Source: Acutalibacteraceae bacterium (GTDB lineage: Bacteria > Bacillota > Clostridia > Oscillospirales > Acutalibacteraceae). Taken from it: 32,000 nucleotides of DNA. The stretch is taken from assembly GCA_045631965.1 (NCBI GenBank), contig JAZQVR010000003.1:55031-87030 (forward strand), written 5' to 3'. Numbering within the stretch: position 1 is the first letter of the stretch; every line of letters begins with the position of its first letter. Shown here piece after piece: positions 881 to 25,228 of the stretch. Both the position numbers and the translations under genes were made by a program. The notes beneath the pieces were generated by a model. The model was not told the DNA's origin, made no database searches, and saw only the letters and a list, made by a program, of their open reading frames with translations.

Positions 881-892
881 AATCAGGTGTAA

Positions 893-2611: not shown

Positions 2612-2614
2612 GAG

Positions 2615-3650: not shown

Positions 3651-3866
3651 TATCACCACCGGCTAAGCGTAGTCACATCAGATAAGTTCAACTGTAGTGC
3701 TTAGGCTGCCGAGTGAATTGTTTTCGCATTGCTTTTACTTGCAAAAGGTACTGTATAAGCATTTTGCCATTGCGGGGCAAGGAAGGTGCGGAAGTTGCCT
3801 CTGAAAAATAAAAATAAATTTTGCAGTGGCGGGACACACAACAGGCTCCCAGAAGGAAAAAAAGTA

Positions 3867-4121: not shown

Positions 4122-4192
4122 AAATAAATCTCCTTTACCTTTTTAAAATTGTAACTTCTTTTGCTATTTTTAATAGCGTGTTGAGGATCCGC

Positions 4193-4546: not shown

Positions 4547-4589
4547 AATATTACCTCCTACAAGCTCCGGGCGGTGTGTAAAATATAAG

Positions 4590-6808: not shown

Positions 6809-6984
6809 TAATTCGCCCCCTTCAACTCTAAAATGATAGCTCTGATTTCTGCTTTTTCTTCATCCGAAAGTTCTTTACGAAGTTTACGGCTGAAATGACT
6901 ATCTGTGATACCGAGTTTATCAGCTATTTGCCAAAGTTTTACACCTGCATTCATAGCTTCGCTTTTAATGTCTAAATTGCTCAT
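6808..6984 (-). CDS. Unannotated 58-aa Cro-like HTH protein MSNLDIKSEAMNAGVKLWQIADKLGITDSHFSRKLRKELSDEEKAEIRAIILELKGAN
   Basis: ATG at 6984 with GAGGTGA 5 nt upstream. The segment VKLWQIADKLGITDSHFSRKL looks like an HTH. First gene of the leftward operon, divergent from the repressor. Below the 60-aa cutoff of the ORF track. Confidence 0.65.
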   Translation of the reverse strand: MSNLDIKSEAMNAGVKLWQIADKLGITDSHFSRKLRKELSDEEKAEIRAIILELKGAN

Positions 6985-7008
6985 ATCTTCACCTCTGAAT
7001 AAATATTA

Positions 7009-7070
7009 TTGACACAAAGCAACCTCTGTGTTACAATTCAAATTGTAATGCAACAGCATCAACTTGTCAA
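7009..7070. promoter_or_regulatory. Interdigitated divergent promoter pair (genetic switch)
   Basis: Plus strand: TTGACA (7009-7014), 17-nt spacer, TACAAT (7032-7037). Minus strand: TTGACA (7070-7065), 17-nt spacer, TACAAT (7047-7042). The two -10 boxes form the arms of the perfect palindrome TTACAAT-TCAA-ATTGTAA (7031-7048). Confidence 0.65.
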
Positions 7071-7131
7071 CATATATATTGCCAAAAAATATTAAAAGCA
7101 ACAAAACAATGACATATCGGAGGCGTATAAA

Positions 7132-7776
7132 ATGTTATGTGGTGATAAAATAGGAAAAAGACTTAAAGAATGCAGGCTGTTATTGGGAGAAAAACAAACA
7201 GAAATTGCAAAACTCCTCAATGTTCAAAGACAAGTTATTAGTTATTATGAAACCGGATTACGTATACCTAATATAAATGATTTGGTTATGTTAGCCGAAC
7301 ATTTTGGCGTGTCAGTCGATTATCTTTTGGGATTATCGGAATACAAGAGCAGAGATGCTCAAAAAGCTGCAGCGTGTAAAGTTACGGGTTTAACAGAAAT
7401 GGCAGCTGATGTTTTGGAAAAGTGGAATAAGCAAGGTGATATTGACTATCTGTCAGTAGTAAACTTGCTTATAGAAAGTCACGGGTGTAAGGCGATAAAT
7501 TTAGATACACCAACTGTTAAATATGATTTGAATCTGATTGCTAAAATAGCAACATATTTATTTGTGAATATAAAAAATGATCCTGAGACTTCTGTATCGA
7601 TTTCTGATAATAATTGTTTATCTAACATGAATTCCGGCATTTCTTATGATATTAAGATAAATCAATCAGATCTTATTGAAAGAATTTTGCTTGATAGCAT
7701 AGTTGATTCGCTTAAAACCGCTCGAAAAATTATTTCTGCAAGTAAAGAAGGTGCAATCGGTGGCGAACATAACTAA
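7132..7776 (+). CDS. XRE/cI-like repressor with a non-peptidase C-terminal domain (214 aa)
   Basis: The N-terminal segment IGKRLKECRLLLGEKQTEIAKLLNVQRQVISYYETGLRIPNINDLVMLAEHFGVSVDYLLGL is an XRE HTH. GGAGG lies 8 nt upstream of the ATG. I saw no S24 Ser/Lys (LexA-like) motif in the C-terminal ~140 aa. Confidence 0.75.
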   Translation: MLCGDKIGKRLKECRLLLGEKQTEIAKLLNVQRQVISYYETGLRIPNINDLVMLAEHFGVSVDYLLGLSEYKSRDAQKAAACKVTGLTEMAADVLEKWNKQGDIDYLSVVNLLIESHGCKAINLDTPTVKYDLNLIAKIATYLFVNIKNDPETSVSISDNNCLSNMNSGISYDIKINQSDLIERILLDSIVDSLKTARKIISASKEGAIGGEHN

Positions 7777-9142
7777 ACGTGGGGACACGTACACAATAAG
7801 GGTTTCTGCCGGGTATGACATAAACGGTAAAAAGATGCTGCGTAATATGACCTGGAAGCCTGAACCGGGTATGACGAAACGGCAGATTGAAAAGGAGCTT
7901 GAGCGGCAGGCGGTTTTGTTTGAGGAAAGTGTAAAAAATGGCCTTTGCATGGGTTCAAATATCAAGTTTGCGGACTTTGCTGAAAAGTGGATGAACGAAT
8001 ATGCAAGAAAGCAGCTCAGGCCGAAGACGGTTGCACATTATGAAGCATTATTACCGAGAATAAATGCAGCCATGGGACACTTGAAAATTGAGAAAATACA
8101 GCCGCACCATTTGTTATCGTTTTATAATAACCTGGCAGAAAAGGGCATCAGGCTCGATACAAAGTACATTGCTACAGTAGATTTGCGGAAAGTTATAAAG
8201 GAAAATAAATTCACTTTTAAGACGCTTGCAGAGAAAGCCGGCATATCTGAACAGAGCATTTCAGCTGCCGCAAAAGGCAATACCATTTCTATAAAGACCG
8301 CTCAAGCGATTAGTTCCGCTCTCGGTGTGAATATTAAAAAGCTGTTCAAAGCGGTTGATGAAGATAAAACTCTTTCCGGCAAGACAATGCAGCATTATCA
8401 CCGCCTTATTTCGTCAATAATGAATACGGCTGTGCAATGGCAAGTTATAAGTAATAACCCTTGCAGCCGTGTGAAGCCGCCAAAAGCTGAGCGGAAAGAA
8501 GCGGAATATCTTGATGAGGTTCAGGCCGTGCAGCTGCTTCAATGCCTCGAGAACGAACCGATAGTATATAAAACACTTTTTACGGTGATTTTATATTCCG
8601 GTATGAGAAGGGGCGAAGCTTGCGGTCTGGAATGGTCCGATATTGACCTTGAGAATGGAATTGTAGATATAAATAAATCAAGTTTATATTTACCGGGCAA
8701 AGGTGTTTTTGACGATGATACAAAAAACGCAACCTCACGCCGTGTTATAAGATTACCTGCGCCGGCTGTGGCCGCTCTCAAAGCATTAAGGATATACCAA
8801 GCTCAAGAGCGGTTGAAGCTCGGTGAACAATGGCAAAATAGTGGTAAAGTTTTCACTGCCTGGAATGGTGTTCCGATACACCCGGACACTGTAAGCAGTT
8901 GGTTTCACGATTTTGTTAAAAGGCATAACCTTCCTAACGTTCACGTTCACAGTCTGCGACATACAAACGCAACGTTGCTGATTTACAACGGCACCGATAT
9001 AAAAACGGTTTCTCAACGCTTAGGCCACGCAAACGTAACCACTACCGGCAATATCTACACCCACGCAATAAAAACAGCTGACGAACGAGCGGCCGAAGCC
9101 TTGGCTGATATTCTTGTACTAAAAGAGAAAAAGAATGCATAA
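7760..9142 (+). CDS. int: Site-specific tyrosine integrase (about 460 aa from the GTG at 7760)
   Basis: Catalytic-region motifs SGMRRGEACGLEW, HSLRHTNATLL and GHANVTTTGNIYTH. The typical N-terminus ANITKRGDTYTIRVS follows the GTG at 7760, which has GAAGG upstream. The track ORF start at 7703 overlaps the repressor and is probably not used. Confidence 0.9.
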   Translation: MANITKRGDTYTIRVSAGYDINGKKMLRNMTWKPEPGMTKRQIEKELERQAVLFEESVKNGLCMGSNIKFADFAEKWMNEYARKQLRPKTVAHYEALLPRINAAMGHLKIEKIQPHHLLSFYNNLAEKGIRLDTKYIATVDLRKVIKENKFTFKTLAEKAGISEQSISAAAKGNTISIKTAQAISSALGVNIKKLFKAVDEDKTLSGKTMQHYHRLISSIMNTAVQWQVISNNPCSRVKPPKAERKEAEYLDEVQAVQLLQCLENEPIVYKTLFTVILYSGMRRGEACGLEWSDIDLENGIVDINKSSLYLPGKGVFDDDTKNATSRRVIRLPAPAVAALKALRIYQAQERLKLGEQWQNSGKVFTAWNGVPIHPDTVSSWFHDFVKRHNLPNVHVHSLRHTNATLLIYNGTDIKTVSQRLGHANVTTTGNIYTHAIKTADERAAEALADILVLKEKKNA

Positions 9143-9217
9143 AACACAAAGGAGCGCAACACCCGGAAAGAGTGAAACGCTCCATATTTTTTGCCGCTCA
9201 ACAGTACATTTTTAATG

Positions 9218-9243
9218 CATTGGTACACAAATAGTACACAAAT
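9218..9243 (+). promoter_or_regulatory. Putative integrase arm-type sites, right arm
   Basis: CATTGGTACACAAATAGTACACAAA matches 857-880 at 23 of 24 positions in the same orientation. A further GTACA half-site lies at 9204-9208. Confidence 0.5.
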
Positions 9244-9323
9244 CGCTCGTTTTAGCTTGCTTTTTAAGCCGCTCGATAAAAAAGAAAAAGCCCAAAACCG
9301 TTGATTTAAAGCGGTTTTAGGCT

Positions 9324-9369
9324 TGGCGCGCTGGAAGGGACTCGAACCCCTGACCTTTTGGTTCGTAGC
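9324..9369. repeat. attR core within the tRNA gene
   Basis: Identical to 698-743. Confidence 0.9.
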
Positions 9370-9400
9370 CAAACACTCTATCCAGCTGAGCTACCAGCGC
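9324..9400 (-). tRNA. tRNA-Arg (anticodon ACG), CCA encoded
   Basis: The reverse complement GCGCTGG TA GCTC AGCTGGATA GAGT G TTTGG CTACGAA CCAAA AGGTC AGGGG TTCGAGT CCCTT CCAGCGC G CCA folds by hand into a canonical cloverleaf. The acceptor stem has 7 perfect base pairs. Confidence 0.9.
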
Positions 9401-9569: not shown

Positions 9570-10880
9570 TTATGAAATTTTGCCGAGCTGATTTACGAGA
9601 GAATTGTTTCGTGTGGCGGATATATTGTTGACGAATATTACATCGTCAATGCCGTTTGTTTCGACAAACTCGGTGATGTTGCCGCTCCAGTATCTGTAGT
9701 CGATAACGTGTATCTCACCATAGTTTTCGGTAAGGAAGGGTACCATAGCGTTGCCGAATGATTCTTTGATAACTACGCACGATGAGCCGTCGGTGATTGC
9801 AGGGTTGACGATATGGGTATAGGGATTATCACCGCCGATGAATGCGTTGTACTTTGAGCCTCTGCTCCAGTCCGAAACATCGGTAATAACATTCCACTTG
9901 ACCTGCTTGCCGTCGTGATTGGTATAAGTGAGCTTTACATTACCCTTGGGTGCATAGGCGTATACGGTGTCGGGATTCTTCTCGAGTGCGGGATTCTTTT
10001 CGGAGTCATTGTAGAATGCACCTACAAAGTTGTCAAACTTCCGCTCGTTGAAATCTGACAAAGCGGCAGTCTTTATTCCTGCAGCCTTGGTGTATTCGCA
10101 GTAGGCGTAGTATGCACCGAGTGCCGTCCAGTGGTGGTCGGTGCGGAAATAGACATATTCGTTTCTGTGGGCATAAATCGAGTCGAAAGCATTGACTTTA
10201 TATGCGTTGGCAGAAATGTTGCGATAGATATAGTTGATAGCATCTTTCTGATTACTTGTGTTTATGTCTTTGCGTACTGCAGCACTGAGCGTGATATCGG
10301 TACTGGTGGGTACGACGATATCGAAAACTCTTGCCTTACCGTTGAGTTTATCGGCTGTATAGCTTACGGTAAGTGCATATCTGTCGGCAGTTGCTTTTAC
10401 GAAACTGTAGTATTCGTAAGCTGAATCATCGACAATCAGCACCGCTCCAAGCTTTTGCACAAGGTTGCTGTCTACCGCTTCATCTTCCGGAAGAGTGTTT
10501 TCTTCAAAATCATCGTACTCCAGGGTGAGCGGAGGAGTGTCTGTATCCGGAATTTCATCGGCGATGGTATCTGTTGAACCGCTTATGCTGCTGCCTATGC
10601 CGTAGAATGATTCGATTTTGGCTTTTGCACCGATGAACATCTCGCGGAACGGAAATGTGTCGGCATACCAAGTGCTGATATCGCTGAAATAGCTGCCGTC
10701 GACAAGTGCAGAAAAGCTGAACTCGGGGAATTTAGCAAGCTCACGCTTTTCTTCTTCCGAATAAGTCGGCCTGAGCGGCAGATAAAGTGCAACCGCAGCC
10801 CCTAAAAACAGCAACACAAAAAAGCTGATTGCAACAGGCTTTGCACCTTTGAACTTTGGTTTGTTTGTTTCTTTCATCAA
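9570..10880 (-). CDS. DHHW-family protein (AlgJ/DltD-like partner of the MBOAT acyltransferase)
   Basis: N-terminal TM anchor and the signature motif YFRTDHHWT. Lies immediately downstream of an MBOAT gene. Confidence 0.8.
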   Translation of the reverse strand: MMKETNKPKFKGAKPVAISFFVLLFLGAAVALYLPLRPTYSEEEKRELAKFPEFSFSALVDGSYFSDISTWYADTFPFREMFIGAKAKIESFYGIGSSISGSTDTIADEIPDTDTPPLTLEYDDFEENTLPEDEAVDSNLVQKLGAVLIVDDSAYEYYSFVKATADRYALTVSYTADKLNGKARVFDIVVPTSTDITLSAAVRKDINTSNQKDAINYIYRNISANAYKVNAFDSIYAHRNEYVYFRTDHHWTALGAYYAYCEYTKAAGIKTAALSDFNERKFDNFVGAFYNDSEKNPALEKNPDTVYAYAPKGNVKLTYTNHDGKQVKWNVITDVSDWSRGSKYNAFIGGDNPYTHIVNPAITDGSSCVVIKESFGNAMVPFLTENYGEIHVIDYRYWSGNITEFVETNGIDDVIFVNNISATRNNSLVNQLGKIS

Positions 10881-10903
10881 TTAATCCTCTGTATAAAGTG
10901 TTG

Positions 10904-12331
10904 TCAGAATTGGAAGTAAAGGAAGGGGTTATAGCTGTCGCCTACAAGTAAAGCTGTAGAGAGCAGAAGCATTGCGCAGGGATAAGCTGTTCTGCATACG
11001 GTTACAAATGTTGCACCTGCTTTGCTCTTTACGAATATACTGTTGAGTATGCCTTTTATGAGCTTGGCAATCGGTATGCAAGCCAGCACAGCGACAATCA
11101 GCAGGAAGATATGACTCTTGAAATCTATATCTGCTTCGTAGCTTGTGAACGGATTTCCGTTGCCGCCAAACATACCTTTGAGTGCAGTGAACATAGTGGA
11201 AATGTTTTCAAACTTAAAGAGTACCCAACCAAAGAAAACAATAACCAACGTATAGATGTGCGAGAATATTCTCGGAAGTTTTTCAAGTATTTTGCCGAGG
11301 AACAGCTTTTCGAGGGCGATAAATATGAAATAATAAAGGCCCCAGAACATATAGTTCCAGCTTGCGCCGTGCCAGAAACCTGTGAGGAACCAGGTTATAA
11401 GCAGGTTTACTATGGTGCGTGCACCGCCTTTGCGGTTGCCGCCGAGAGGAATGTATACATAGTCCCGGAAGAAAGAGCCGAGCGAAATGTGCCACCTTCT
11501 CCAGAATTCGCTTATTGAACGTGAACAGTAAGGATAATCGAAATTCTCTTTGTAGTGGAAACCGGTCATTCGTCCCATACCTATCGCCATATCTGAGTAA
11601 GCGGAGAAATCGAGATATATCTGCAGAGAAAAGAACAGCATACCGAGCCACAGTGCAGATGCGGGTCGTGCCTGAATATTCTGAGCGAAAAGAAGAGAAT
11701 CTGCCATTTCGCCGCAGCTGTTTGCAAGAAGTGATTTTTTGGCAAGACCTGTAGCAAAGCGGATTATGCCTGCTGCCATATCGGATTCGTTTACACTTCG
11801 GCTGGATATTTCACGTGCAATATCCTTATATCTGACAATCGGACCTGCAACGCACTGATGGAACAGGCTTGCGTAAAGCAGGACGTTGAAGAAATTTCTT
11901 TCTGCTTTTACATCGCCTCTGTAAACATCGACAACATAGGTCAGAAGCTGGAATGTATAAAAAGAAATACCTATAGGCAGGGCAATCTGAGTTATTACGG
12001 ACGGATGGCCTGTTACGGACTGAAGGTTTTCCTGGAAAAATGTACCGTATTTGAATATGCCGAGCAGACCGAGGTCGACAACACAGGTTGTAATAACGGC
12101 AAGCTTTGATATAAGACTGCCTCTGTTTTTTTCGACGGCAAGCGATAACAGCCAGTCGATAAAACTCATCGCGACAAGCAACAATACATATTTTGGCTCA
12201 CCCCAAGCATAAAATACGAGGGAAAAAATGAGCATTATCGCATTTCGCACGGGTGTGCTTTTTGCCAGATAATACAAGGCGATATTCAAAGGCAGGAAAA
12301 GGAATACAAAAAACAAACTGGAAAATACCAT
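10904..12331 (-). CDS. MBOAT-family O-acyltransferase (AlgI/DltB-like)
   Basis: Polytopic membrane protein with the conserved segment FWRRWHISLGSFFRDYVYIPLGGNR, which includes the MBOAT catalytic His region. Confidence 0.85.
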   Translation of the reverse strand: MVFSSLFFVFLFLPLNIALYYLAKSTPVRNAIMLIFSLVFYAWGEPKYVLLLVAMSFIDWLLSLAVEKNRGSLISKLAVITTCVVDLGLLGIFKYGTFFQENLQSVTGHPSVITQIALPIGISFYTFQLLTYVVDVYRGDVKAERNFFNVLLYASLFHQCVAGPIVRYKDIAREISSRSVNESDMAAGIIRFATGLAKKSLLANSCGEMADSLLFAQNIQARPASALWLGMLFFSLQIYLDFSAYSDMAIGMGRMTGFHYKENFDYPYCSRSISEFWRRWHISLGSFFRDYVYIPLGGNRKGGARTIVNLLITWFLTGFWHGASWNYMFWGLYYFIFIALEKLFLGKILEKLPRIFSHIYTLVIVFFGWVLFKFENISTMFTALKGMFGGNGNPFTSYEADIDFKSHIFLLIVAVLACIPIAKLIKGILNSIFVKSKAGATFVTVCRTAYPCAMLLLSTALLVGDSYNPFLYFQF

Positions 12332-16815: not shown

Positions 16816-16829
16816 ATAATAAAGTTAAA

Positions 16830-16871
16830 GACAGCGGTGCTGAGGATTTTCCTCGGTGCCGCTGTCTTTTG
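16830..16871 (+). terminator. Rho-independent terminator after the mscS-like gene
   Basis: 16-bp stem GACAGCGGTGCTGAGG/CCTCGGTGCCGCTGTC with three G-U wobbles, followed by TTTTG. Confidence 0.7.
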
Positions 16872-17138
16872 TATGGAAAAGGATGTGTGAGAACATATTA
16901 TCACCGTCAGCCTGCTCCGTTTAAAATCACAGCATCTTTAAAAATTTATGCTGCTTATGTTTAAAATAATTGCGAATTTGTGAGAGGCAGTGACAGAAGC
17001 TTTCGTCGGTGTCTCACTGTTGCTCTGAGAAAGTCGGGTTATTGAGGCATTAAAAATGTGAATATTTGTTTAACATTCAGAAAAAACGACGGAAGTATCA
17101 CCTGTTTGCATTGAAAAAACGGCTGTTTCAGCCTTTGA

Positions 17139-17681
17139 GTGAGGGGAGTAACCGATATCCTCTCAGAAATTTGCAAGGAAGGTGAAAAAATAGCAAAGAA
17201 ATCACTAAGCAAAAGAGAGAAGCTTTTTTGTCTGAATTATGTGATACTGCCTGACGGCCGTGACGCAGCGATAAAGGCAGGTTACACAATGAGTCCTCAG
17301 ACTGCGGCGGCTAAGCTGCTCAGCCGAAAGGATATTACAAACGAAATAGCTTCTCTCGCAAAGGCACTCACGCCGCACCGTAATGAGGCGGCGGCAGGCT
17401 ACCGCAGGTTAGCCTTCGGCAGTGTATCGGACGCACTTCGACTTGTTTTCTGTGAGGACCCTCCCTCGCGGGAAGAGCTGGACAAAATGAATCTTTTCAA
17501 TGTTGCGGAAATCAAAAGGCCAAAGGGCGGCGGCATTGAAATCAAGTTTTTCGACAGGCTCAGACCTCTCGAGCGGCTTGCGGAAATGAGCAGCGAAGAA
17601 GCGGAAAGCGGTGCGTTGCCGTTTTATCAGGCGCTGGAAAGCTCGGCAAGACAGATAAGGACAAGTGTTGCAGATGAGTAG
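17139..17681 (+). CDS. terS: Terminase small subunit
   Basis: The segment LSKREKLFCLNYVILPDGRDAAIKAGYTMSPQTAAAKLLSRKDITNEI matches the Terminase_2-type N-terminal HTH as I recall it. The start is uncertain: the GTG at 17139 lacks a Shine-Dalgarno, and a strong AAGGAAGGTGA (17172-17182) is followed only by an in-frame ATA. Confidence 0.75.
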   Translation: MRGVTDILSEICKEGEKIAKKSLSKREKLFCLNYVILPDGRDAAIKAGYTMSPQTAAAKLLSRKDITNEIASLAKALTPHRNEAAAGYRRLAFGSVSDALRLVFCEDPPSREELDKMNLFNVAEIKRPKGGGIEIKFFDRLRPLERLAEMSSEEAESGALPFYQALESSARQIRTSVADE

Positions 17682-18954
17682 AAAGGCAAAACAGCAGGTT
17701 GCTTTCAGAACTTTCTCAGCCAAACAGCTGACAGTGCTGACCTGGTGGTGTCTGTCATCACCTTACAGCCGTAAGGATGCAATTATATGTGACGGTGCAG
17801 TACGCTCGGGCAAAACGGTATGTATGTCGCTGTCATTCATATCGTGGGCAATGGCAGCCTTTGAAGATACGTCATTTGCTATCTGCGGCAAAACAATCGC
17901 ATCGCTCAGGCGTAACGTTATACGCCCTATGTTGCCTGTGCTCACACAGCTCGGCTTTGAGTGCACCGAAAAGGTTTCGCGTAACGAAATCGAAATCAGC
18001 TTCGGCGGCAAAACAAACAGCTTCTGGCTTTTCGGCGGTAAAGACGAAAGCTCTGCTTCGCTTATTCAGGGTATGACACTCGGGGGTGTACTTCTCGATG
18101 AGGTCGCTCTTATGCCCCGTTCATTTGTTGAGCAGGCTCTCGCACGCTGTTCGCTTGACGGATCGAAATTCTGGTTTAACTGCAACCCCGATAACCCCTT
18201 GCACTGGTTTCATGAGGAGTGGATAAAGAAGCACGATGAGAAAAACTGCCTTTATCTTCATTTCCTTATGGAGGATAACCCATCCCTGACACCGGAAATT
18301 ATCAGCAGATACCGTAACCTTTACAGCGGTACGTTTTACGAGCGGTTTGTCGAAGGAAAGTGGGTTGCTGCTGAAGGTCTTGTCTATCCGTTTTTCAGTG
18401 CCGAAAGGCATATCTGCCCTGTGCCGCAGGGTGATTTCGAATGCTGGTACATTTCCTGCGATTACGGTACGGTAAACCCGAGCTCATTCGGGCTGTGGGG
18501 TTTGCTTGACGGAGTATGGTACAGGGTGGCGGAGTATTATCACGACTCACGTGCACTCGGTGTACAACGCACAGATGAAGAGCATTATTCCGCACTTGAG
18601 GAGCTTGCAGGCGGCAGAGACATAAGTGCGGTTGCGGTAGACCCTTCGGCCGCAAGCTTCATCGAGTGCATCCGCCGCCACGGTAAGTATAAGGTAGTTC
18701 ACGCAAAAAACGATGTTACGGACGGTATACGCAAGGTTTCCGAAGCACTTAAATCGGAAAAAATAAAAATCTGCACACCGTGCCGTGACATCGTGCGTGA
18801 ATTTTCGCTCTACCGTTGGGATAACAACTGTGTCAGGGATACACCGTGCAAAACAAATGACCACGCAATGGACGATATGCGTTACTTTGTCACAACGCTT
18901 ATGAGTAGCGGTGATTGCTCGTTTTTTGCCATTGCAACAGAAAGGAAGGAGTAA
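17674..18954 (+). CDS. terL: Terminase large subunit (PBSX-like family)
   Basis: Walker A-like motif DGAVRSGKT and Walker B-like motif LLDEVA. The C-terminal nuclease region includes NDHAMDDMRY. The ATG at 17674 overlaps the end of terS. Confidence 0.85.
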   Translation: MSRKAKQQVAFRTFSAKQLTVLTWWCLSSPYSRKDAIICDGAVRSGKTVCMSLSFISWAMAAFEDTSFAICGKTIASLRRNVIRPMLPVLTQLGFECTEKVSRNEIEISFGGKTNSFWLFGGKDESSASLIQGMTLGGVLLDEVALMPRSFVEQALARCSLDGSKFWFNCNPDNPLHWFHEEWIKKHDEKNCLYLHFLMEDNPSLTPEIISRYRNLYSGTFYERFVEGKWVAAEGLVYPFFSAERHICPVPQGDFECWYISCDYGTVNPSSFGLWGLLDGVWYRVAEYYHDSRALGVQRTDEEHYSALEELAGGRDISAVAVDPSAASFIECIRRHGKYKVVHAKNDVTDGIRKVSEALKSEKIKICTPCRDIVREFSLYRWDNNCVRDTPCKTNDHAMDDMRYFVTTLMSSGDCSFFAIATERKE

Positions 18955-20073
18955 ATGAAAAAGAAGAAAAAGGCTGATACCTCACCTGAAGTATGTTCTG
19001 TGCAGACGGGTAATGTGTCAAATCCGTTTTCGGTTTTTGAAGCATCGGCACTCGGCAGACACGATTTGCAGCTTTACGGTGCTCTGCGTGATGCTGTGCC
19101 TATAATCGATGCGGCAATTACAAAGCTTGTCCGTTTGTCCGGAGGCTTTGAAGTAAGGTGTACGCACGCAAAATCGCAACCGTATATGGACAGCTTTGTG
19201 TCAGGTGTATGTGTAAACGGCAACAGCACGGGACTCGAAGCTTTTGTATCAGGTTATTTTGAGCAGCTTCTGACCTACGGCACTGCAATAGGTGAGGTTG
19301 TGACCGACTGTAACGGAATACCGTGTGCACTGTTTAATGCGCCGCTTGAAAACATCGAGCTTCGCCGCAGTGAAAACGGACTGAATATTGATATGTATTC
19401 GCTCACTTCGGGCAAGCCCGAAAAAATTGCTTATCCCGAGCTTACCGTAATGAGTGTGCTCAATCCCGAAGCAGGCTCTCTTACGGGTAACTCACTGCTC
19501 AAAGGCTTGCCGTTTGTTTCCTCGGTGCTTATGAAGATTTTCCGTACGGTAGGTAACAACTGGGAGCGGCTCGGCAACGTACGCTTTGCCGTTACATACA
19601 AGCCGCAGAACGATACGCTTGACCGTGCTTATGCAAAGGAAAGAGCGATGCAGGTTGCGGAAGAATGGAGCAGTGCGATGAGCAGCGGCAGCGTGAAGGA
19701 TTTTGTCGCTGTAGGCGATGTGCAGATTAAGGTTATCGGTGCCGAAGCACAGCTGCCTGACAGCGAAGTGTCCGTACGACAGTTGCTTGAACAGATTGTT
19801 GCAAAGACAGGCTTACCTCCGTTTTTGCTCGGACTTTCGTGGTCGAGTACGGAGAGAATGTCGTCACAGCAGGCGGATGCGCTGACGAGTGAGCTTGAGT
19901 CATATCGCAGAATCCTTACACCTGCAATTGTCAAGGTCTGCAATACTGTTCTCAGACTTACGGGACTTCCCGGAGAAGTCAATGTCATCTGGGACGAAAT
20001 TATGCTTCAGGATATGGTTGAAGCTTCACGCGCAGAGCTCTATTCGGCTCAGGCGCAGAAACTGATTGATTAA
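18955..20073 (+). CDS. Portal protein (372 aa)
   Basis: Canonical position directly after terL (TAA then ATG, with AAGGAAGGAG upstream) and appropriate size. No sequence motif recognised, so the call rests on synteny. Confidence 0.65.
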   Translation: MKKKKKADTSPEVCSVQTGNVSNPFSVFEASALGRHDLQLYGALRDAVPIIDAAITKLVRLSGGFEVRCTHAKSQPYMDSFVSGVCVNGNSTGLEAFVSGYFEQLLTYGTAIGEVVTDCNGIPCALFNAPLENIELRRSENGLNIDMYSLTSGKPEKIAYPELTVMSVLNPEAGSLTGNSLLKGLPFVSSVLMKIFRTVGNNWERLGNVRFAVTYKPQNDTLDRAYAKERAMQVAEEWSSAMSSGSVKDFVAVGDVQIKVIGAEAQLPDSEVSVRQLLEQIVAKTGLPPFLLGLSWSSTERMSSQQADALTSELESYRRILTPAIVKVCNTVLRLTGLPGEVNVIWDEIMLQDMVEASRAELYSAQAQKLID

Positions 20074-20115
20074 AGTAACTGCATATTATTTGCGGTTACC
20101 TCAAAAGGAGGAAAA

Positions 20116-21093
20116 ATGAACACACTTTATAAAAACATTTCAAGCAGTGTTGTTGCCGATACGGCGGCGGAGGATGAGCTTGAGCTTATCAACCGCCATA
20201 CCATAAAGCCGCTTACTGCAGACGAGGTTTTCTGCTTCACTCTGACTCTCTGCGATAACGAAATCGACAGAGACTTTGAGAGATTCAGCGTAGCTTCACT
20301 GGTTAAACTTGCTGCGATGTTTGACGGCAGGACGGGCATCACCGACCACAATATGAAGAGCGACTGCCAGACGGCAAGAATTTTCAAAACGTGGATTGAA
20401 GAGAGTGAAAGTGAAATTACCTCAACGGGTGAAAAATACACCTGTCTAAAGGCAAGAGCATATATGCCGAGGACACCTAAAAACGAAGAGCTTGTAAGAC
20501 AGATTGAAGCAGGTATCAAAAAGGAAACAAGCGTAAGCTGCTCTGTAGCAAATATGAGCTGTTCGGTATGCGGTGCGGATTTGAGAAAGAAAGGGTGTAA
20601 GCACCGTAAGGGCGAAGTGTATGACGGCAGAGTATGTCATACATTGCTCGAAGAACCTACGGATGCTTATGAATGGAGCTTTGTTGCAGTGCCTGCACAG
20701 CCCAGAGCAGGCGTAACAAAATCGTTTGAAGCCGAGGACGGTATGAGCATTTCACAGCTTAAAGAAAAATCAAGCGGCTTTGATTCGATTACGCTCAGCC
20801 TTTCGGCATTCGGCAAGCTGACAGACGAAATAAATCGCCTCGAGGTACTTGCAAAGGATGCCGAGCTTTACCGCAAAGGGCTTGAACAGCAGGTAATAAA
20901 GCTTGCTTCAATGGCAGTGCCGTCGCTCGGCTCGGATGATTTTGCAGATATCTGCAGCTCTCTTACTGCCTCACAGCTTTCGGTGCTCGAAAAAGCATTT
21001 GCCGACAGGGCATCAAAGCTTTACCCGATAAAGCCGCAACTCAGCGGCAATACGGTAACGACAAAAACAAACAACAATGAATTCAAAATTTAA
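20116..21093 (+). CDS. Prohead protease (HK97/S78-like) fused to a C-terminal scaffold-like coiled coil
   Basis: The segments DNEIDRDFERFS...GITDHN...KARAYM...EAGIKKETSVSCSV...YEWSFVAVPAQPRAG follow the S78 prohead protease pattern. The C-terminal ~110 aa are helical (LEVLAKDAELYRKGLEQQVIKLA). Contains an inserted Cys/His cluster, CSVCG-x9-CKH-x11-CH. Confidence 0.65.
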   Translation: MNTLYKNISSSVVADTAAEDELELINRHTIKPLTADEVFCFTLTLCDNEIDRDFERFSVASLVKLAAMFDGRTGITDHNMKSDCQTARIFKTWIEESESEITSTGEKYTCLKARAYMPRTPKNEELVRQIEAGIKKETSVSCSVANMSCSVCGADLRKKGCKHRKGEVYDGRVCHTLLEEPTDAYEWSFVAVPAQPRAGVTKSFEAEDGMSISQLKEKSSGFDSITLSLSAFGKLTDEINRLEVLAKDAELYRKGLEQQVIKLASMAVPSLGSDDFADICSSLTASQLSVLEKAFADRASKLYPIKPQLSGNTVTTKTNNNEFKI

Positions 21094-21110
21094 GGAGGAA
21101 ATAATAACAT

Positions 21111-22115
21111 ATGGCTAATTATGATAACATCAGACTCGAAAAGGGTCTTTACTGCACAGGTTCATTCACATCCGCACTTGAGAGCATTGACCCTTCGGAA
21201 AACTACAAGGGCAGTTCACTTGAAGGCCTCGATGCATATCAGCGTCAGCTCAAGCGTTTTGATATCAAGGTAAGCGGTGCAGGCAGTGATACTGTTGAAA
21301 AATTCTTCAAGACAACCGACAGTGCAACACTCTTCCCCGAATATGTTGCAAGAGCTGTACGCCAGGGTATCGAGGAGGCAAACAATCTGCCTCAGATTAT
21401 CGCATCCGTAACAAATATCGACTCGCTCGATTACCGTTCAATCACAAGCGTTCCCACTGATGAGGAAAAATCACTTCTTGCGGTTGCTGAAGGTGAGGTT
21501 ATCCCCGAAACAACCGTCAGAACACGTGAGAATCTCGTCAAGCTCCACAAGCGCGGCAGAATGCTCGTAGCATCTTACGAGGCAATCCGTTTCCAGCGTC
21601 TTGACCTTTTTACCGTAACACTCCGCCAGATTGGTGCACATATTGCAAAGGCACAGCTTGCCGATGCGATTGACACAATCATCAACGGTGACGGCAACGA
21701 CAATGCTGCTGCAGCTACAACTGCAATCAGCTCCGGCAGCCTTACATATGCGGATATCGTCAATCTTTGGAAAGACCTTGACCCGTACGAGATGAACGTG
21801 CTTATCGCAAACAATGCGGATGCAGTAAATATGCTCAATATCAGCGAGTTCAAGGATTCTGCGGCAGGTCTCAATTTCCACGCAACAGGTAAGATGATTA
21901 CACCTATCGGCGCAGAGCTTATCCGCTCTTCTGCAGTGCCTGCAGGTACTGTTATCGGTCTTGACAAGCGCTGTGCACTCGAAATGGTCAAGGCAGGCGA
22001 GGTTATGACCGAGTATGACAAGCTCATCGACAGACAGCTTGAGCGTGCGGCAATTACCTCTATTGCCGGCTTTGCAAAGATTTTCACAGACGCATCACGC
22101 ACACTCAAAGTCTGA
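21111..22115 (+). CDS. Major capsid protein (presumed HK97 fold)
   Basis: Position after the protease-scaffold gene, size of 334 aa, and a strong Shine-Dalgarno (AAGGAGG). The call rests on synteny. Confidence 0.7.
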   Translation: MANYDNIRLEKGLYCTGSFTSALESIDPSENYKGSSLEGLDAYQRQLKRFDIKVSGAGSDTVEKFFKTTDSATLFPEYVARAVRQGIEEANNLPQIIASVTNIDSLDYRSITSVPTDEEKSLLAVAEGEVIPETTVRTRENLVKLHKRGRMLVASYEAIRFQRLDLFTVTLRQIGAHIAKAQLADAIDTIINGDGNDNAAAATTAISSGSLTYADIVNLWKDLDPYEMNVLIANNADAVNMLNISEFKDSAAGLNFHATGKMITPIGAELIRSSAVPAGTVIGLDKRCALEMVKAGEVMTEYDKLIDRQLERAAITSIAGFAKIFTDASRTLKV

Positions 22116-22131
22116 TTCGGGAGGGTAACGT

Positions 22132-22500
22132 ATGATTAACAGTCACACTGTGCTCGCAAGGCTCAGACAGCTCGTTACCCTTGACGAAGAAGGGGCAGAA
22201 AACGCTCTGCCCCTTTGCAGGCTGTGCCTTGAGGAAGTACAGCACAGATTAAAAGACTCAGCTGATAAGGATGACCCCAGAGTTGCACAGGCCGCCGCGG
22301 GTCTTGCGTATTACCGCACTATAATCCGTGAGGCGGCAGACAGCGACGGTACAACAAGCTTCAAAGCAGGCGATGTAACTGTTACACGAACACCTGCGGC
22401 AATGCTTGAAATAGCTTGTGCCGTACGTGATGAAGCTCTTTTGCAGGCGGCAGACCTTTTTGTTGATTGCGGCTTTGCTTTCAGGCAGGTAGATGTATGA
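22132..22500 (+). CDS. Head-tail connector/adaptor (gp6-like)
   Basis: 122 aa, helical N-terminus, and a TSFKAGDVTVTRT segment typical of gp6/Phage_connect_1-type adaptors. Synteny supports the call. Confidence 0.55.
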   Translation: MINSHTVLARLRQLVTLDEEGAENALPLCRLCLEEVQHRLKDSADKDDPRVAQAAAGLAYYRTIIREAADSDGTTSFKAGDVTVTRTPAAMLEIACAVRDEALLQAADLFVDCGFAFRQVDV

Positions 22501-22826
22501 GGGTTGAACCGATTTTTACAAAGCTCGGCAGAGAAGTTACGCTGACTGACGGCGATAAAACAGAGAGCGGAAAAGCTCTCATTCAGCCGTTGAGATATAA
22601 GAACAAGATGTACCTTGACGGCGTATATACCGAAATCGGCTTCAACAGCCAGGGCAGATATCTTTATATAGGACCTCCTGTACCTGATCTCACTCTTGTG
22701 AGCGATACGGCAACGCTTTCTTCGGGCGGTACAAGCTACCGTATTGACCGCGCCGAAAGAGTTTACAACGGCAGTGAAGTGTTTTATATCTGGGCGATAA
22801 TACGTACAATAGTGGAAGGAGAATGA
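22497..22826 (+). CDS. Head-closure / head-tail joining-like protein (109 aa)
   Basis: ATGA overlap with the upstream gene. Small and probably beta-rich. The C-terminal segment GGTSYRIDRAERVYNGSEVFYIWAIIR resembles head-tail joining proteins. Confidence 0.45.
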   Translation: MRVEPIFTKLGREVTLTDGDKTESGKALIQPLRYKNKMYLDGVYTEIGFNSQGRYLYIGPPVPDLTLVSDTATLSSGGTSYRIDRAERVYNGSEVFYIWAIIRTIVEGE

Positions 22827-22827
22827 T

Positions 22828-23673
22828 ATGGCAGATTCAATAAGCTCTATGCCCAAGGAAATATCCGAATGGCTGAGCAAACAGACAAAGATTTTCGGCG
22901 ACATAAAATTTCTTACGGAGTTTCCGCCTCGGCCAAAGGCGACACCGCTCAGGCAGACCATAGTTTCCGTAGGTCTCGAAAATGTCAAGATTACGGACTT
23001 TTTTACCGAAAACAACGAAGGTGAATTAGTGCCTGAAGAATATTGCAGATTGGCAGAAATCAAGGTGCGCTTTTCGGTCTATGTTCCGTACTCCGCAGGC
23101 GGTACGGCTTGCCACGAGGCCTTCACGAAAATTGTTGACTGCCTTAACTTTAAAAGTGATCTCAATCTTAAAGAATCAGGCTGTGAAGCGATAGAAGCCG
23201 ACAGAGATGCCGAAGCTTTTGTTATGAAAAGCTGGGTTATAGTTGAAGCGAAATTCTGCCCCGAATCTTCAAGTGCCGTGCAGTATGAGGCGTTTATGCC
23301 AAAGACTTTTTTCTGCGGCTCGCATATAAATGACAGCTCAAAGCACGTAACTGCCGAAGAAAAGGAATCGTGGGGACTTAAGCCTGTAATAGGTGCATAT
23401 TTCGGTACGGGTGAATATGAGCAGAGCATACGCGTCGGCTTCAAGCCGAGTTTCGTTATAATTTGCAGAGCCACCGGGCCGGCTATGGGCACTGACGGAA
23501 ACGGTACGCTTAACAGCTATATCGGCATGGCAAACCATACTTTTGCAAGTACAGGTCTGAAAGTAACGTCGACGGGCTTCAAGGTGTTTCACAGCTCTTC
23601 GCTCGACTATGAAAACACATCAACTCAGCTCAATGCCTTTGGCGAAGACTATGTGTATATAGTATTCAGATAA
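22828..23673 (+). CDS. Two-domain neck/tail-adaptor-like protein (281 aa), last gene of the module
   Basis: The start lies 1 nt after the upstream stop. The N-terminal ~140 aa occupy the position of a third connector gene. The C-terminal ~140 aa (SHINDSSKHVTAEEKESW...YFGTGEYEQSIRVGFKPSFVIIC) form an unrecognised extension. Confidence 0.4.
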   Translation: MADSISSMPKEISEWLSKQTKIFGDIKFLTEFPPRPKATPLRQTIVSVGLENVKITDFFTENNEGELVPEEYCRLAEIKVRFSVYVPYSAGGTACHEAFTKIVDCLNFKSDLNLKESGCEAIEADRDAEAFVMKSWVIVEAKFCPESSSAVQYEAFMPKTFFCGSHINDSSKHVTAEEKESWGLKPVIGAYFGTGEYEQSIRVGFKPSFVIICRATGPAMGTDGNGTLNSYIGMANHTFASTGLKVTSTGFKVFHSSSLDYENTSTQLNAFGEDYVYIVFR

Positions 23674-23700: not shown

Positions 23701-23729
23701 TTGATTTTTCTTTTTGTGTGCGTTATACT
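23701..23729 (+). promoter_or_regulatory. Promoter of the DapA-family gene
   Basis: TTGATT (23701-23706), 17-nt spacer, TATACT (23724-23729). Confidence 0.5.
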
Positions 23730-23761: not shown

Positions 23762-24670
23762 ATGTCAAAAGAATTCAATAACCGTGGCGTATATTCACTC
23801 ATCCTCACACCGTTTAATGAGGATCGTTCAATTAACTTCAACACATACGAAAAGTATGTTGAATGGCAGGCACGTCAGGGTGCCGACCATCTTTTTGCCT
23901 GCTGCGGCAGCTCCGAAATGATGGAGCTTACACTTGACGAGAGAGAGAAGCTTGCAAAGATTGCTGTTGAAAGAGCAGGCGGTATGTCTGTTGTTGCAAC
24001 TGCTAACCTCGAGCCTACATGGCACGGTCAGCTCGAAGAGCTCAAGCGTATGGAGCAGACAGGTGTTGACGGCCTTGTTTTCGTTTCAAAGGGTTATTGC
24101 GGCGATAATGACCGTCTCTTTACATATCTTTCAGAGCTCAGTACTCACACAACTCTTCCCATCGTTCTTTACGAGTTCCCGGGTCTTCGTCCTCACCTTA
24201 TGGATGCTTCCGTTTACGGCAAGCTTGTCGAAACAGGCAGATTCGTAGGTATCAAGGACACAACCTGCAAGATTGAAACAATCAAGGAAAAGATTGCCGT
24301 TCAGGGCGATTCAGCAGTGCTTCAGGCAAATATTCCTTACCTTATGGAAGCATACGAAGCAGGTGCACGCGGTGTTGTTGCAACACCCACAAGCTGCGGT
24401 GCATATCTGTTTGCAAAGATGTACGACGAGTTCTTTGTACAGAACGACCGCGAGGCAGCAAACCTTACACATCAGCAGATTTGCCTTCTTGATAACTGCA
24501 TCGATTCAGGCTTCTGTGCATCAGCAAAGTACCTTGTAAGCCTTTGCGGTATTGATGATTTCAACTGGTACACAAGAGGCTCACACGAGCTCAGTCCTTG
24601 CCGTCTCAAGTCCATCCGTACATTCTTCGAGTGGGCAAAGGCAACAGGTCTCAAATTCTACAACGACTGA
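23762..24670 (+). CDS. Dihydrodipicolinate synthase / N-acetylneuraminate lyase family (class I aldolase) protein
   Basis: Family-typical segments PFNEDRSINF, a GSSEM segment in place of the usual GTTGE, PIVLYEFPG, and the Schiff-base lysine context VGIKDTT. Confidence 0.75.
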   Translation: MSKEFNNRGVYSLILTPFNEDRSINFNTYEKYVEWQARQGADHLFACCGSSEMMELTLDEREKLAKIAVERAGGMSVVATANLEPTWHGQLEELKRMEQTGVDGLVFVSKGYCGDNDRLFTYLSELSTHTTLPIVLYEFPGLRPHLMDASVYGKLVETGRFVGIKDTTCKIETIKEKIAVQGDSAVLQANIPYLMEAYEAGARGVVATPTSCGAYLFAKMYDEFFVQNDREAANLTHQQICLLDNCIDSGFCASAKYLVSLCGIDDFNWYTRGSHELSPCRLKSIRTFFEWAKATGLKFYND

Positions 24671-24688
24671 TAAAGGCAGGTTTTTACA

Positions 24689-25228
24689 ATGGCCGAAAGC
24701 AAAAACTTCTCAACAGCACGCAAGGGTTACAATACCGCCGAGGTTGATGAGTATGTAGCTTCATCCGAAAGAGTTAACGCAGAGCTTCGCGAAAGCTATG
24801 CCGGGCTTCAGGCAAAGTACGACAGCCTTTTTGAAGAAAACGGCAAGCTCATCAAAGAGCGTGAGCAGCTTCGTCAGGGCTGCAAGACTATGGCTACGGC
24901 TCTCAAACAGCTTCGCGAAAACGCAGGCGAAGACTACAAGACAAAATATGAAGAGGCTATAGTTCAGCTTGAGGAGCTTAAGGCTCAGAAAGCAGATGCT
25001 CCTGCCGCTGTCGAGTCTGTATCGGCTTCGCAGATGATTGAAGAGGTAGCTCAGGTTGTAAAACGTGTCGAAAGCGATGCACGCCGTAAGGCAGAGGCTG
25101 TTACTGCGGCTGCAAAGCTTGAGCAGACTCAGGCTCAGCTTATCCGCTCGAGAGTAAATGATGAGGTCAAGAGCCTTATTCAGATGCTTGAGGGTTTTCT
25201 TGAGGAGCATGAAGAAACCGAAGAATAA
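24689..25228 (+). CDS. DivIVA-domain protein
   Basis: N-terminal segment FSTARKGYNTAEVDEYV followed by a long coiled coil. Confidence 0.8.
   Translation: MAESKNFSTARKGYNTAEVDEYVASSERVNAELRESYAGLQAKYDSLFEENGKLIKEREQLRQGCKTMATALKQLRENAGEDYKTKYEEAIVQLEELKAQKADAPAAVESVSASQMIEEVAQVVKRVESDARRKAEAVTAAAKLEQTQAQLIRSRVNDEVKSLIQMLEGFLEEHEETEE

Follow-up and report, generated by a model that had tools for sequence, protein, structure and literature searches.

A chromosomally fixed, tail-less head-and-neck module of phage origin in Oscillospirales as a candidate gene transfer agent-like system

The subject of this analysis is a cluster of phage-type genes, hereafter the module, located at positions 17139-23673 of a 32,000-nucleotide stretch of DNA from an Acutalibacteraceae bacterium (assembly GCA_045631965.1, contig JAZQVR010000003.1, positions 55,031 to 87,030 of the forward strand). 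This whole 32-kb stretch is referred to as the window; the inspected DNA comprised the window and, for relatives, the 10 kb on either side of each related locus (labelled L001, L002 and so on). The module lies between a gene for an MscS protein and a gene for an aldolase. The listing of open reading frames (ORFs) of the window contains eight intact, co-directional ORFs in the module, just as they had been placed in a preliminary description of the same DNA. These genes and the domains of the last one are as follows.

17139-17681, + strand: TerS gene, 180 amino acids (aa)
17665-18954, + strand: TerL gene, 429 aa
18955-20073, + strand: portal gene, 372 aa
20116-21093, + strand: head-assembly (XkdF-position) gene, 325 aa
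21111-22115, + strand: major capsid gene, 334 aa
22132-22500, + strand: adaptor-position neck gene, 122 aa
22497-22826 (22467-22826 in the ORF listing), + strand: stopper-position neck gene, about 109 aa
22828-23673, + strand: terminator fusion gene, 281 aa
22828-23259, + strand: N-terminal domain of the fusion, with the terminator fold (residues 1-144; Foldseek, phrog_25177)
23260-23301, + strand: linker of the fusion (about residues 145-158; predicted local distance difference test (pLDDT) score of the AlphaFold 2 model below 50 at 146-158)
23302-23673, + strand: beta-rich C-terminal domain of the fusion (residues 159-281; pLDDT 83-95)

Gene content of the module

The genes of the module are tightly spaced: those for TerS and TerL overlap by 17 nt, those for TerL and the portal abut, and the remaining gaps measure 1-42 nt. 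The stopper-position gene most likely starts at the ATG at 22497, in an ATGA overlap with the preceding stop codon, and its copies in relatives encode 109-111 aa. The packaging proteins were recognised in profile searches. TerS matches PF03592 at 2.7e-9 and phrog_51 at 5.9e-12, and its N-terminus shows a LSKREKLFCLNYV...AAIKAGY motif of the helix-turn-helix type found in the Terminase_2 family, which is the typical DNA-binding end of such proteins. In nearly all of the 78 loci compared, TerS forms a single uninterrupted tblastn match. By its profile matches, TerL belongs to the PBSX family of headful-type packaging enzymes: it reaches TIGR01547 at 2.3e-57, with 195 bits against a cut-off of 105, and also matches PF03237 and phrog_2. 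It is 48-51% identical to the TerL of Bacillus, Staphylococcus, Lactobacillus and Clostridium phages, some of whose records are annotated as belonging to the PBSX family. The portal protein matches phrog_30703 at 4.8e-122, and its relatives give weak matches to PF04860. The product of 21111-22115 is identified by its matches to PF25209 (1.7e-16), phrog_3922 (3.3e-99) and TIGR01554 (2.4e-7) as a major capsid protein of the HK97 type. These results agree with the identities given to all four proteins in the preliminary description. Among 50,697 phage records, neither portal nor capsid has a close homologue outside five human faecal virome scaffolds deposited as 'UNVERIFIED Bacteriophage sp.', at least one of which (MT835508) is a piece of chromosome carrying a cluster of the module family.

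The 325-aa protein occupies the XkdF position of the PBSX element and matches phrog_16951 (2e-99), a family without an assigned function. It has no match in Pfam or NCBIfam, and Foldseek found no fold match in the PDB for its AlphaFold 2 model (best E 0.7). The model (pLDDT 78.6) has a beta-rich N-terminal half and a C-terminal third made of long helices (residues 229-302), and the family shows invariant residues at H78, S139, C142, C149, C152, C161, H163, C174, D183 and E186. In the model, the protein looks scaffold-like by its long C-terminal helices, while its N-terminal domain, rich in His, Ser and Cys, matches no known fold. Only this helical part upholds the 'protease-scaffold' label that the gene had been given; the designation as a prohead protease was dropped for want of a fold match, protease activity being possible but unproven. 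In most relatives, a gene of about 114 aa is found between the genes for the 325-aa protein and the capsid (for example at L006:9637-9978). It is cleanly absent from the window (21093-21111) and from its three closest relatives, L004, L012 and L013, and independently absent from some of the Ruminococcus-type loci described below. The protein that it encodes has no family match and is not Prp-like.

The three genes that follow the capsid gene had been described as connector-like, and all of them do occupy neck positions; the third proved to be a terminator fold joined to a second domain. The 122-aa gene directly follows the capsid gene in all three gene layouts found among relatives, and its product has no match in Pfam or among PDB sequences. 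Its homologue in L064 gives a weak match to phrog_132, 'head-tail adaptor' (E 0.005). From its gene position, equivalent to that of XkdH, the protein would be the head-tail adaptor. The gene of about 109 aa is likewise conserved in the three layouts, and from its position, that of XkdI, would encode the stopper or head-closure protein; its product has no family match in Pfam, phrog or PDB profile searches. Profile searches against PDB sequences gave nothing usable for the capsid, portal, 122-aa, 109-aa and 325-aa proteins, and Pfam gave nothing for family members of the 122-aa, 109-aa and 114-aa proteins, nor for the tube-like, 140-aa and 184-aa proteins of relatives.

The 281-aa protein encoded by the last gene carries the clearest trace of the history of the module. 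In its AlphaFold 2 model (pLDDT 79.8), a disordered stretch at residues 146-158 lies between two domains. In Foldseek searches of the PDB, the N-terminal domain matches the Pa193 neck (9b42_G, 2e-5) and the pyocin R2 collar (6u5f_A, 9e-5), followed by the SaPI1 neck (9mu3_D), lambda gpU (3fzb) and an RcGTA protein (6tba_4A), while in BFVD it matches 'neck terminator gp12-like' and 'tail completion' proteins. The 281-aa protein also gives a weak match to phrog_25177, the family of a stand-alone 165-aa gene that precedes the sheath gene in L115, a relative with a tail. In BLAST comparisons, residues 10-143 cover nearly all of the stand-alone 190-aa protein found in terminator position in L022 (1e-20). 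Residues from about 160 to 281 match the C-terminal 120 residues of the protein encoded by the last gene of tailed clusters (L022_177 at 2e-17, L051_194 at 3e-14, L088_153 at 6e-11), a gene that stands in tail-fibre position after a Mu gp48/XkdU-like gene. An exhaustive phmmer search of 1.84 billion representative proteins returned fused forms of about 270-282 aa, N-only forms of about 140-175 aa and C-only forms of about 150-160 aa. The N-only and C-only classes meet at the linker, and stand-alone proteins of about 156 aa match residues 163-281 of the fusion. At least 90 protein clusters, with identities down to 40%, contain the fused form in its full length. The start of the C-terminal domain also shows a weak motif match (E 0.015) to the receptor-binding protein Gp15 of Listeria phage PSA (6r5w_A). 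Taken together, these alignments identify 22828-23673 as an in-frame fusion in which a tail-terminator gene has been joined to the part of the last, fibre-position gene that encodes its C-terminal domain; this fusion we read as the scar of a tail deletion.

Relatives and the loss of the tail

Homologues of the capsid protein form more than 8000 clusters at 90% identity, and their identity to the window protein falls smoothly from 97% to about 70% on 100-400 kb contigs of Clostridia metagenome-assembled genomes (MAGs). When one genome per species was scanned, the capsid gene was found in at least 588 species-representative genomes of Oscillospirales, including Acutalibacteraceae, Ruminococcus, Oscillospiraceae, Candidatus Fimenecus, Pseudoflavonifractor capillosus ATCC 29799 and the complete genome of Ruminococcus sp. 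JE7B6. In addition, at least 495 IMG/VR contigs carry the cluster; most of these are 10-14 kb long and apparently consist of the cluster alone. The five 'UNVERIFIED: Bacteriophage sp.' records from a human faecal virome that carry it are L001 (MT835508.1), L002, L003, MT836604 and MT838993. The 46.7-kb scaffold MT835508 has host-type flanks, a MarR-family regulator gene directly upstream of the cluster and no tail genes along its length. The viral labels attached to such contigs reflect either mislabelling by virus callers or a hint that such chromosomal DNA occurs in virus-like particle (VLP) fractions.

The gene neighbourhood of the module is conserved with distance in a graded manner. Relatives whose capsids are 96% and 88% identical to that of the window show the same layout, with mscS, the module, the aldolase gene, TrmB and TPK. 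At 84% and 80% identity, the module and the right flank are the same and the left flanks differ, and at 71% the nine-gene module is flanked by GlyRS and other host genes. In none of these five relatives does the module adjoin genes for a tail, lysis, an integrase or replication. Comparison of the interval between mscS and the aldolase gene in related strains had been proposed as a way of revealing a recent deletion from a complete prophage; close relatives carry the same tail-less module at this junction, and no complete prophage. The module and its flanks have diverged together, as illustrated by L013, in which TerL, portal and capsid are 96%, 95% and 96% identical to those of the window, and the flanking DHDPS-family, TrmB, TPK and MscS proteins 97%, 98%, 86% and 81%. 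Pairwise ratios of nonsynonymous to synonymous substitution (dN/dS) range from 0.03 to 0.25 over all eight genes, at dS from 0.3 to saturation (above 2), and flanking genes fall in the same range. By gene, the values are 0.12-0.20 for TerS, 0.03-0.12 for TerL, 0.04-0.21 for the portal, 0.08-0.23 for the 325-aa protein and 0.04-0.22 for the capsid. All eight genes are single in-frame matches in 40 of 48 loci with the tail-less layout, the other eight being cut by a contig end or falling just below the coverage threshold. From these comparisons, it is close to certain that the module is chromosomally fixed, vertically inherited and under purifying selection. Since synteny, co-divergence with the flanks, low dN/dS, intact genes and the lack of att-like repeats all coincide, both a recent deletion remnant and a mobile satellite are excluded.

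A survey of gene order in 171 related loci distinguished three layouts. Layout C (34 loci, including P. capillosus and other Oscillospiraceae) comprises a head, a short contractile tail and a baseplate. Its capsid gene is followed by two small neck genes and the genes for a 165-aa phrog_25177 protein, a 353-aa sheath protein (PF04984 and PF17482, phrog_279 at 1e-43) and a 129-aa protein in tube position (phrog_27038). Three small proteins come next, among them one of about 180 aa in the tape-measure position, and the cluster ends with LysM/DNA_circ_N, baseplate hub, Mu gp45-like, gp25-like wedge, Baseplate_J (1.5e-50 in L064) and Mu gp48-like genes. The tape-measure-position protein measures about 160-220 aa in sheath-bearing relatives (L115:8343-8897 and equivalents) and has no family match; it is so short that the contractile tail of layout C would be extremely short. 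In layout B (52 loci, mostly Ruminococcus), the sheath and the three small genes are missing; the tube-like gene and the baseplate are retained. Layout A (52 loci in Acutalibacteraceae, including the window, with capsids 63-97% identical to that of the window) ends after the protein of about 281 aa and thus consists of head and neck only; none of these loci has a baseplate homologue within 10 kb. Lysis genes are absent from the cluster in every layout. The module had at first been likened to the head genes of a siphovirus, a label that does not hold, as its tailed relatives carry a sheath and a baseplate of the Mu/P2/PBSX type.

In a midpoint-rooted neighbour-joining (NJ) tree of TerL and the capsid protein, the tips are ordered with layout C first, then B, then A. 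The ancestral form, which persists in Pseudoflavonifractor and other Oscillospiraceae, encodes a small head, a contractile tail of very short length and a baseplate of the Mu/P2 type, with its genes ordered as in PBSX. The Ruminococcus-type versions have lost the sheath and the three genes following the tube gene. In Acutalibacteraceae, one deletion would have taken the tube-like gene and all baseplate genes and joined the terminator in frame to the C-terminal domain of the fibre-position gene, and the resulting module of eight to nine genes has since been inherited vertically under purifying selection. A single event is likely, being favoured by the collinear full-length alignment of the fusion across the layout-A clade. 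MgtE is the left neighbour of 23 layout-A and three layout-B loci in a sister clade; because the layout-B loci that group with layout A in the tree share this neighbour with the 23 layout-A loci, the deletion took place in situ. On this comparative evidence, we consider it close to certain that the module is domesticated and that its tail was lost by deletion and fusion.

Flanks, transcription signals and a separate island

The flanks of the module contain ordinary genes. Pfam searches of all flanking genes found no tail, lysis, integrase or replication gene within 7.6 kb to the left or 8.3 kb to the right of the module, as the preliminary description had maintained, and no integrase, transcriptional regulator or primase-replicase gene lies between 16816 and 23761. 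A repeat search of the window found no att-like repeats flanking the module. The left flank encodes DHHW and MBOAT proteins, a hydrolase-like protein, a 592-aa protein without an assigned function and MscS; the right flank encodes the DHDPS-family aldolase, a 179-aa coiled-coil protein, TrmB, TPK, HAD, a TPR/NPCBM protein, GH43 and GlmS. The adjacent DHHW-family and MBOAT-family genes, on the minus strand at 9570-12331, form a pair typical of O-acylation of envelope polymers and are ordinary host content. The aldolase and the 179-aa coiled-coil protein (23762-25228) are constant right neighbours wherever the capsid identity of relatives is about 80% or more.

The GC content of the module (0.483) exceeds that of the host flanks (0.435 and 0.441), so that the excess reported earlier is genuine, yet it is small and does not amount to a compositional anomaly: single host genes in the window range from 0.387 to 0.493. 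Because individual host genes reach 0.49, the module is not compositionally foreign. Two features precede terS.

16827-16869, + strand: hairpin just 3' of the mscS stop codon (inverted repeat I4, 20-nt arms, 85% complementary, 3-nt loop)
16870-17138, + strand: putative promoter or regulatory region, intergenic, upstream of terS

The hairpin is likely to be the terminator of mscS and marks the left edge of a transcription unit belonging to the module. The putative promoter or regulatory region downstream of it contains three weak sigma-70-like sites (16874-16901, 16898-16927 and 16938-16967), each with 9 of 12 matches, which does not exceed what shuffled sequence gives. Some k-mers upstream of the module are conserved among relatives and probably belong to the leaders of neighbouring host genes. 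On the right side, the promoter attributed to the aldolase gene (TTGATT-17-TATACT, 23701-23729) does match the consensus at 9 of 12 positions; such sites are no commoner in the region than in shuffled sequence (12 observed against 10.9 +/- 3.7). No terminator-like site was found between 23673 and 23762, and the aldolase gene may therefore be co-transcribed with the module. The family to which the aldolase (23762 onward) had been assigned stands, although it is not a bona fide DapA: it scores 86 bits against a dapA cut-off of 206 in NCBIfam, which makes it a DapA-family enzyme with no specificity assigned.

Neighbourhoods vary among relatives. GlyRS was considered as a synteny anchor and rejected, as it lies upstream in 10 loci only; the gene of about 460 aa that recurs upstream encodes MgtE in one clade, in another GerA. 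In Ruminococcus, the version with head and baseplate is found downstream of a GerA spore-germination gene in ten loci (L064:4213-5607 and nine others), and in L064 the cluster is followed by pyruvate phosphate dikinase (L064:16432-19113). In the GlyRS-flanked clade (L010:13017-16624 and L018), the module is directly followed by a 623-aa protein, a 403-aa polymorphic toxin with an LHH domain and a SUKH-family immunity protein. Within a few kb downstream, among the TrmB/TPK/HAD genes, L006 (18740-20199), L007/L008, L017 and L104 carry an integrase-bearing element, which suggests that this neighbourhood is a local integration hot spot unrelated to the module.

The window also contains an island at 698-9369, 7.8 kb from the module and, as initially described, separately bounded: it has its own low GC content (0.391), lies at a tRNA-Arg(acg) gene (9324-9400), which is the only match in an Rfam scan, and contains no TerS, capsid or other packaging gene. 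It encodes a 479-aa tyrosine integrase, a 214-aa helix-turn-helix (HTH) regulator, a D5-type primase-helicase, a RecE/Gam-like 97-aa protein and small regulators. The integrase has an HTH domain of the Cro/C1 type inserted between its SAM-like and catalytic domains. The island looks like a relative of phage-inducible chromosomal islands (PICIs) or an integrative mobilisable element, unrelated to the capsid module.

Proposed function and comparison with known systems

Altogether, these findings led to a reading that we consider probable, in which the module encodes the head and neck of a particle system (a viriform) that derives from an ancient phage of PBSX ancestry, is fixed in the chromosome, resembles gene transfer agents (GTAs) and extends across Oscillospirales. 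It is moderately likely that it forms active particles that move DNA. In this model, TerS and TerL would fill a small HK97-type capsid by headful packaging through the portal. The 325-aa scaffold-like protein would assist in building the capsid, and a three-layer neck of adaptor, stopper and a ring of the terminator fusion protein would close it. The fibre-derived domains of the ring would be exposed round the neck, where they may stand in for the tail as a minimal adsorption device. Release would need lysis genes located elsewhere in the genome, and the expected product is a tail-less-looking GTA-like particle containing cellular DNA. Packaging may be initiated at a pac site within or close to terS and continue into the adjacent chromosome, or may be random as in classical GTAs; pac-initiated packaging into the neighbouring chromosome is possible because TerS keeps a DNA-binding-type N-terminus and the element cannot excise. 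A more far-reaching proposal, which we advance only tentatively, is that stepwise reduction of the tail has produced a self-sufficient 'neck-tailed' capsid, whose fused ring would replace the tail in both adsorption and DNA exit, and that this family lies behind much of the 4-10 kb GTA-like packaging in Ruminococcaceae, Oscillospiraceae and Acutalibacteraceae.

Several considerations weigh against the GTA-like reading. Particle formation, DNA content, gene transfer and the adsorption role of the fusion C-domain are all predicted from the genes; the 122-aa and 109-aa proteins are named adaptor and stopper by gene position, and a receptor-binding role of the C-domain rests on gene position and the one weak motif match to PSA Gp15. 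To our knowledge, there is no established route by which a neck-only capsid delivers DNA into a Gram-positive cell. With no lysis or tail gene in the window, and no regulator accompanying the module, the genes at hand do not account for release and delivery. The lineage of the window has lost the gene of about 114 aa that most relatives keep, almost all relatives are MAGs, and five layout-B loci fall inside or beside the layout-A clade in the NJ tree, which leaves the single deletion likely rather than proven. Finally, TerS retains its DNA-binding-type N-terminus, unlike the TerS of RcGTA and of FpGTA (PMC12946183), so that packaging may not be random.

It could also be that the particle is still tailed, the module being merely the head locus of a multi-locus GTA whose tail, baseplate and lysis genes have been relocated in the genome. 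Known GTAs are indeed multi-locus, for example RcGTA and FpGTA with its operon II (PMC12946183). Lysis genes must lie elsewhere in any case, being absent from the cluster in all layouts, and the view taken here spans 32 kb of the window genome and 10 kb on each side in relatives. This arrangement nevertheless appears unlikely, as the terminator is fused in frame to the fibre-position gene where relatives have their tube and baseplate genes; because the fusion sits exactly at this site, deletion is indicated rather than relocation. Moreover, a terminator with a bulky C-terminal domain may not cap a tube normally, and the 10 kb around each of the 52 layout-A loci are devoid of baseplate homologues. 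A role outside gene transfer, such as protected extracellular DNA, a phage decoy, a link to spore biology or another cellular task, would account for the strong purifying selection that continues after loss of the delivery apparatus. It would also be in keeping with PBSX, the closest characterised relative by gene order, which transfers no DNA productively (PMC12946183), and with the GerA spore-germination genes that flank the Ruminococcus versions. We consider such exaptation quite improbable: DNA packaging itself appears still to be selected, because TerS, TerL and portal are all conserved under selection. The module, moreover, has no cargo or targeting gene, and adjacency to GerA is lineage-specific. 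An encapsulin-type nanocompartment was ruled out by the same conservation of terminase and portal.

Dependence on a helper, with heads completed by the tails of co-resident phages as in capsid-forming PICIs (cf-PICIs), had been suggested by the gene content (TerS, TerL, portal, capsid and connectors, with no tail or holin gene), which does resemble the packaging half of a cf-PICI (PMC10085698). The island at 698-9369, with its integrase, regulator and D5 primase only 7.8 kb away, would then be a cargo, and the preliminary description went as far as a split satellite with capsid genes acting in trans. The resemblance does not extend to membership, and we hold this explanation to be very unlikely. 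The module lacks the three core components of integration and replication and has at most 4-6 of the 11 cf-PICI core components, nine being required; it is chromosomally fixed, keeps its synteny and has been inherited vertically throughout an order, being present in hundreds of species. The island differs in GC content (0.391 against 0.483), sits at tRNA-Arg outside the conserved neighbourhood and has no TerS or pac-related gene. In tailed phages, the tail terminator (gpU in lambda) is part of the tail half of the head-tail joint; since the module has a terminator of its own and pre-assembled foreign tails would bring theirs, docking is not expected. The ancestry of the module is, besides, that of a self-sufficient tailed element. 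Hardly credible, in turn, is a decaying prophage in which a recent deletion has left a non-functional stump that has not yet accumulated mutations. The tail genes are certainly absent, tailed relatives exist, and the 'cleanly truncated prophage' of the preliminary description is correct insofar as tail genes were deleted, in deep time and with a fusion scar. The truncation is not recent, however: the same form occurs at 52 loci with capsid identities of 63-97%, dS reaches saturation at dN/dS of 0.03-0.25 with genes intact in every complete locus, and close relatives at the mscS-aldolase junction have the same module and no complete prophage. Of the explanations first put forward, it is thus the domesticated capsid system, fixed, vertically inherited and under purifying selection across the family, that has fared best.

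According to long-read virome studies, when capsids mobilise DNA in gut Clostridia of humans and mice, they do so most often by GTA-like packaging of short host fragments (PMC12946183; bioRxiv 10.64898/2026.07.08.737213). The module family offers a concrete, testable candidate locus for such packaging, carried by at least 588 species, and cultured carriers of tailed layouts are available in Pseudoflavonifractor capillosus ATCC 29799 (layout C) and Ruminococcus sp. JE7B6 (layout B). The family also displays tail loss in a domesticated virus as a series preserved in nature, in which the deletion scar can be identified, and opens two questions: what minimal apparatus makes a capsid useful to its host, and what selection keeps once the tail is lost. 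From a practical standpoint, prophage and satellite finders will go on mislabelling such loci; at least 495 stand in IMG/VR as viral contigs and several in GenBank as 'Bacteriophage sp.'.

Among known systems, PBSX is the most similar in organisation, homology at the protein level having been compared for the TerL family only. The window TerL falls in the PBSX family (TIGR01547), the head genes follow the order TerS-TerL-portal-X-capsid-neck, and tailed relatives continue from terS to a gp48/XkdU-like gene via sheath, tube, LysM, hub, gp45-like, gp25-like and Baseplate_J genes, an order that we take to mirror that of PBSX (xtmA-xtmB-xkdE...xkdU) with a drastically shortened tape measure. Both PBSX and the module family are chromosomally fixed, lack an integrase and are not self-transmissible. 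Unlike PBSX, the window has no contractile tail (sheath, tube, tape measure) and no baseplate, which are present in layout C and partly in layout B, and holin or endolysin genes are adjacent neither to the module in the window nor to the cluster in annotated relatives. The tape-measure protein of PBSX is long, whereas tailed relatives of the module span only about 13 kb and have a tape-measure-position protein of about 180 aa. The capsid and portal of the module lack detectable close homologues in cultured phages. PBSX is moreover confined to a few Bacillus species, while the module family spans a whole order.

The comparison with cf-PICIs, which are defined by at least nine of 11 core components, including an integrase, a regulator of the AlpA/MerR/Stl type and a primase-replicase (PMC10085698), is limited to gene content. 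The window has TerS, TerL, portal, capsid and connector-type genes (adaptor and connector being positional) and no tail or holin gene. It differs in having no integrase, regulator, primase-replicase or HNH gene, in its immobility (fixed position and co-divergence with the flanks), in its derivation by tail loss from a self-sufficient element and in encoding a tail-terminator fusion protein. The module lies closer to GTAs and viriforms, with no replication, integration or excision genes of its own, vertical inheritance and purifying selection; it does not have the make-up of an intact or recently truncated prophage. Like RcGTA, it is a cluster of structural genes of phage origin that has neither replication nor integration genes, encodes a small head and has been passed on vertically throughout a large clade while under purifying selection, and the terminator fold of its fusion protein matches 6tba_4A of RcGTA. 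Its origin is nonetheless independent and of the myovirus/PBSX type, the ancestor of RcGTA being of the siphovirus type, and the version in the window, known here from its genes only, lacks a tail tube, a tape measure and distal tail proteins.

FpGTA of Faecalibacterium prausnitzii, which was compared through its annotations, produces tail-less-looking 40-nm capsids with 8.4-8.9 kb of host DNA (PMC12946183). Its I operon was reported only in Faecalibacterium, a second locus encodes baseplate and lysis genes, and its TerS is reported to lack a DNA-binding domain (PMC12946183). The FpGTA capsid protein carries an N4-gp56 family annotation, and its gene is separated from the portal gene by one for a Prp-like protease (PMC12946183, Supplementary Data 2). 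As in FpGTA, the module is a fixed head-type operon (TerS, TerL, portal, scaffold, capsid, hypotheticals) in a gut Oscillospirales bacterium. However, the window capsid is of the HK97 type (TIGR01554 and PF25209 only) with no N4-family match, neither the 325-aa protein nor the 114-aa protein of relatives matches Prp, TerS keeps its N-terminal motif, and the module family spans several families of the order. Orthology was rejected on the capsid family, and because the capsid families differ and no Prp-like neighbour is present here, the two are different elements.

GTA-like packaging of 4-10 kb of host DNA has been described in Ruminococcaceae, Oscillospiraceae and related uncultured taxa, with loci assigned only in Faecalibacterium; events with no assigned locus include those in Ruminococcus_C callidus (4.6 kb), CAG-115, UBA11524, Onthomonas, Gemmiger and others (PMC12946183). 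In the MAGs of Ruminococcus_C callidus, CAG-115 and UBA11524, the packaged DNA measures 4.4-4.9 kb (PMC12946183). A study in mice adds packaging without an assigned locus in Oscillospiraceae and Butyricicoccaceae (bioRxiv 10.64898/2026.07.08.737213). The module family is a candidate source of some of these locus-less events in gut Clostridia. Literature searches combining PBSX or GTA with these taxa returned only two VLP-sequencing studies and a transductomics method paper, with no description of the module family or of the terminator-fibre fusion. The module thus belongs to a known kind, that of domesticated phage-like particles and GTA-like elements; what is new here is an independent origin of the PBSX type in Oscillospirales and a graded loss of the tail that ends in a selected head-and-neck module.

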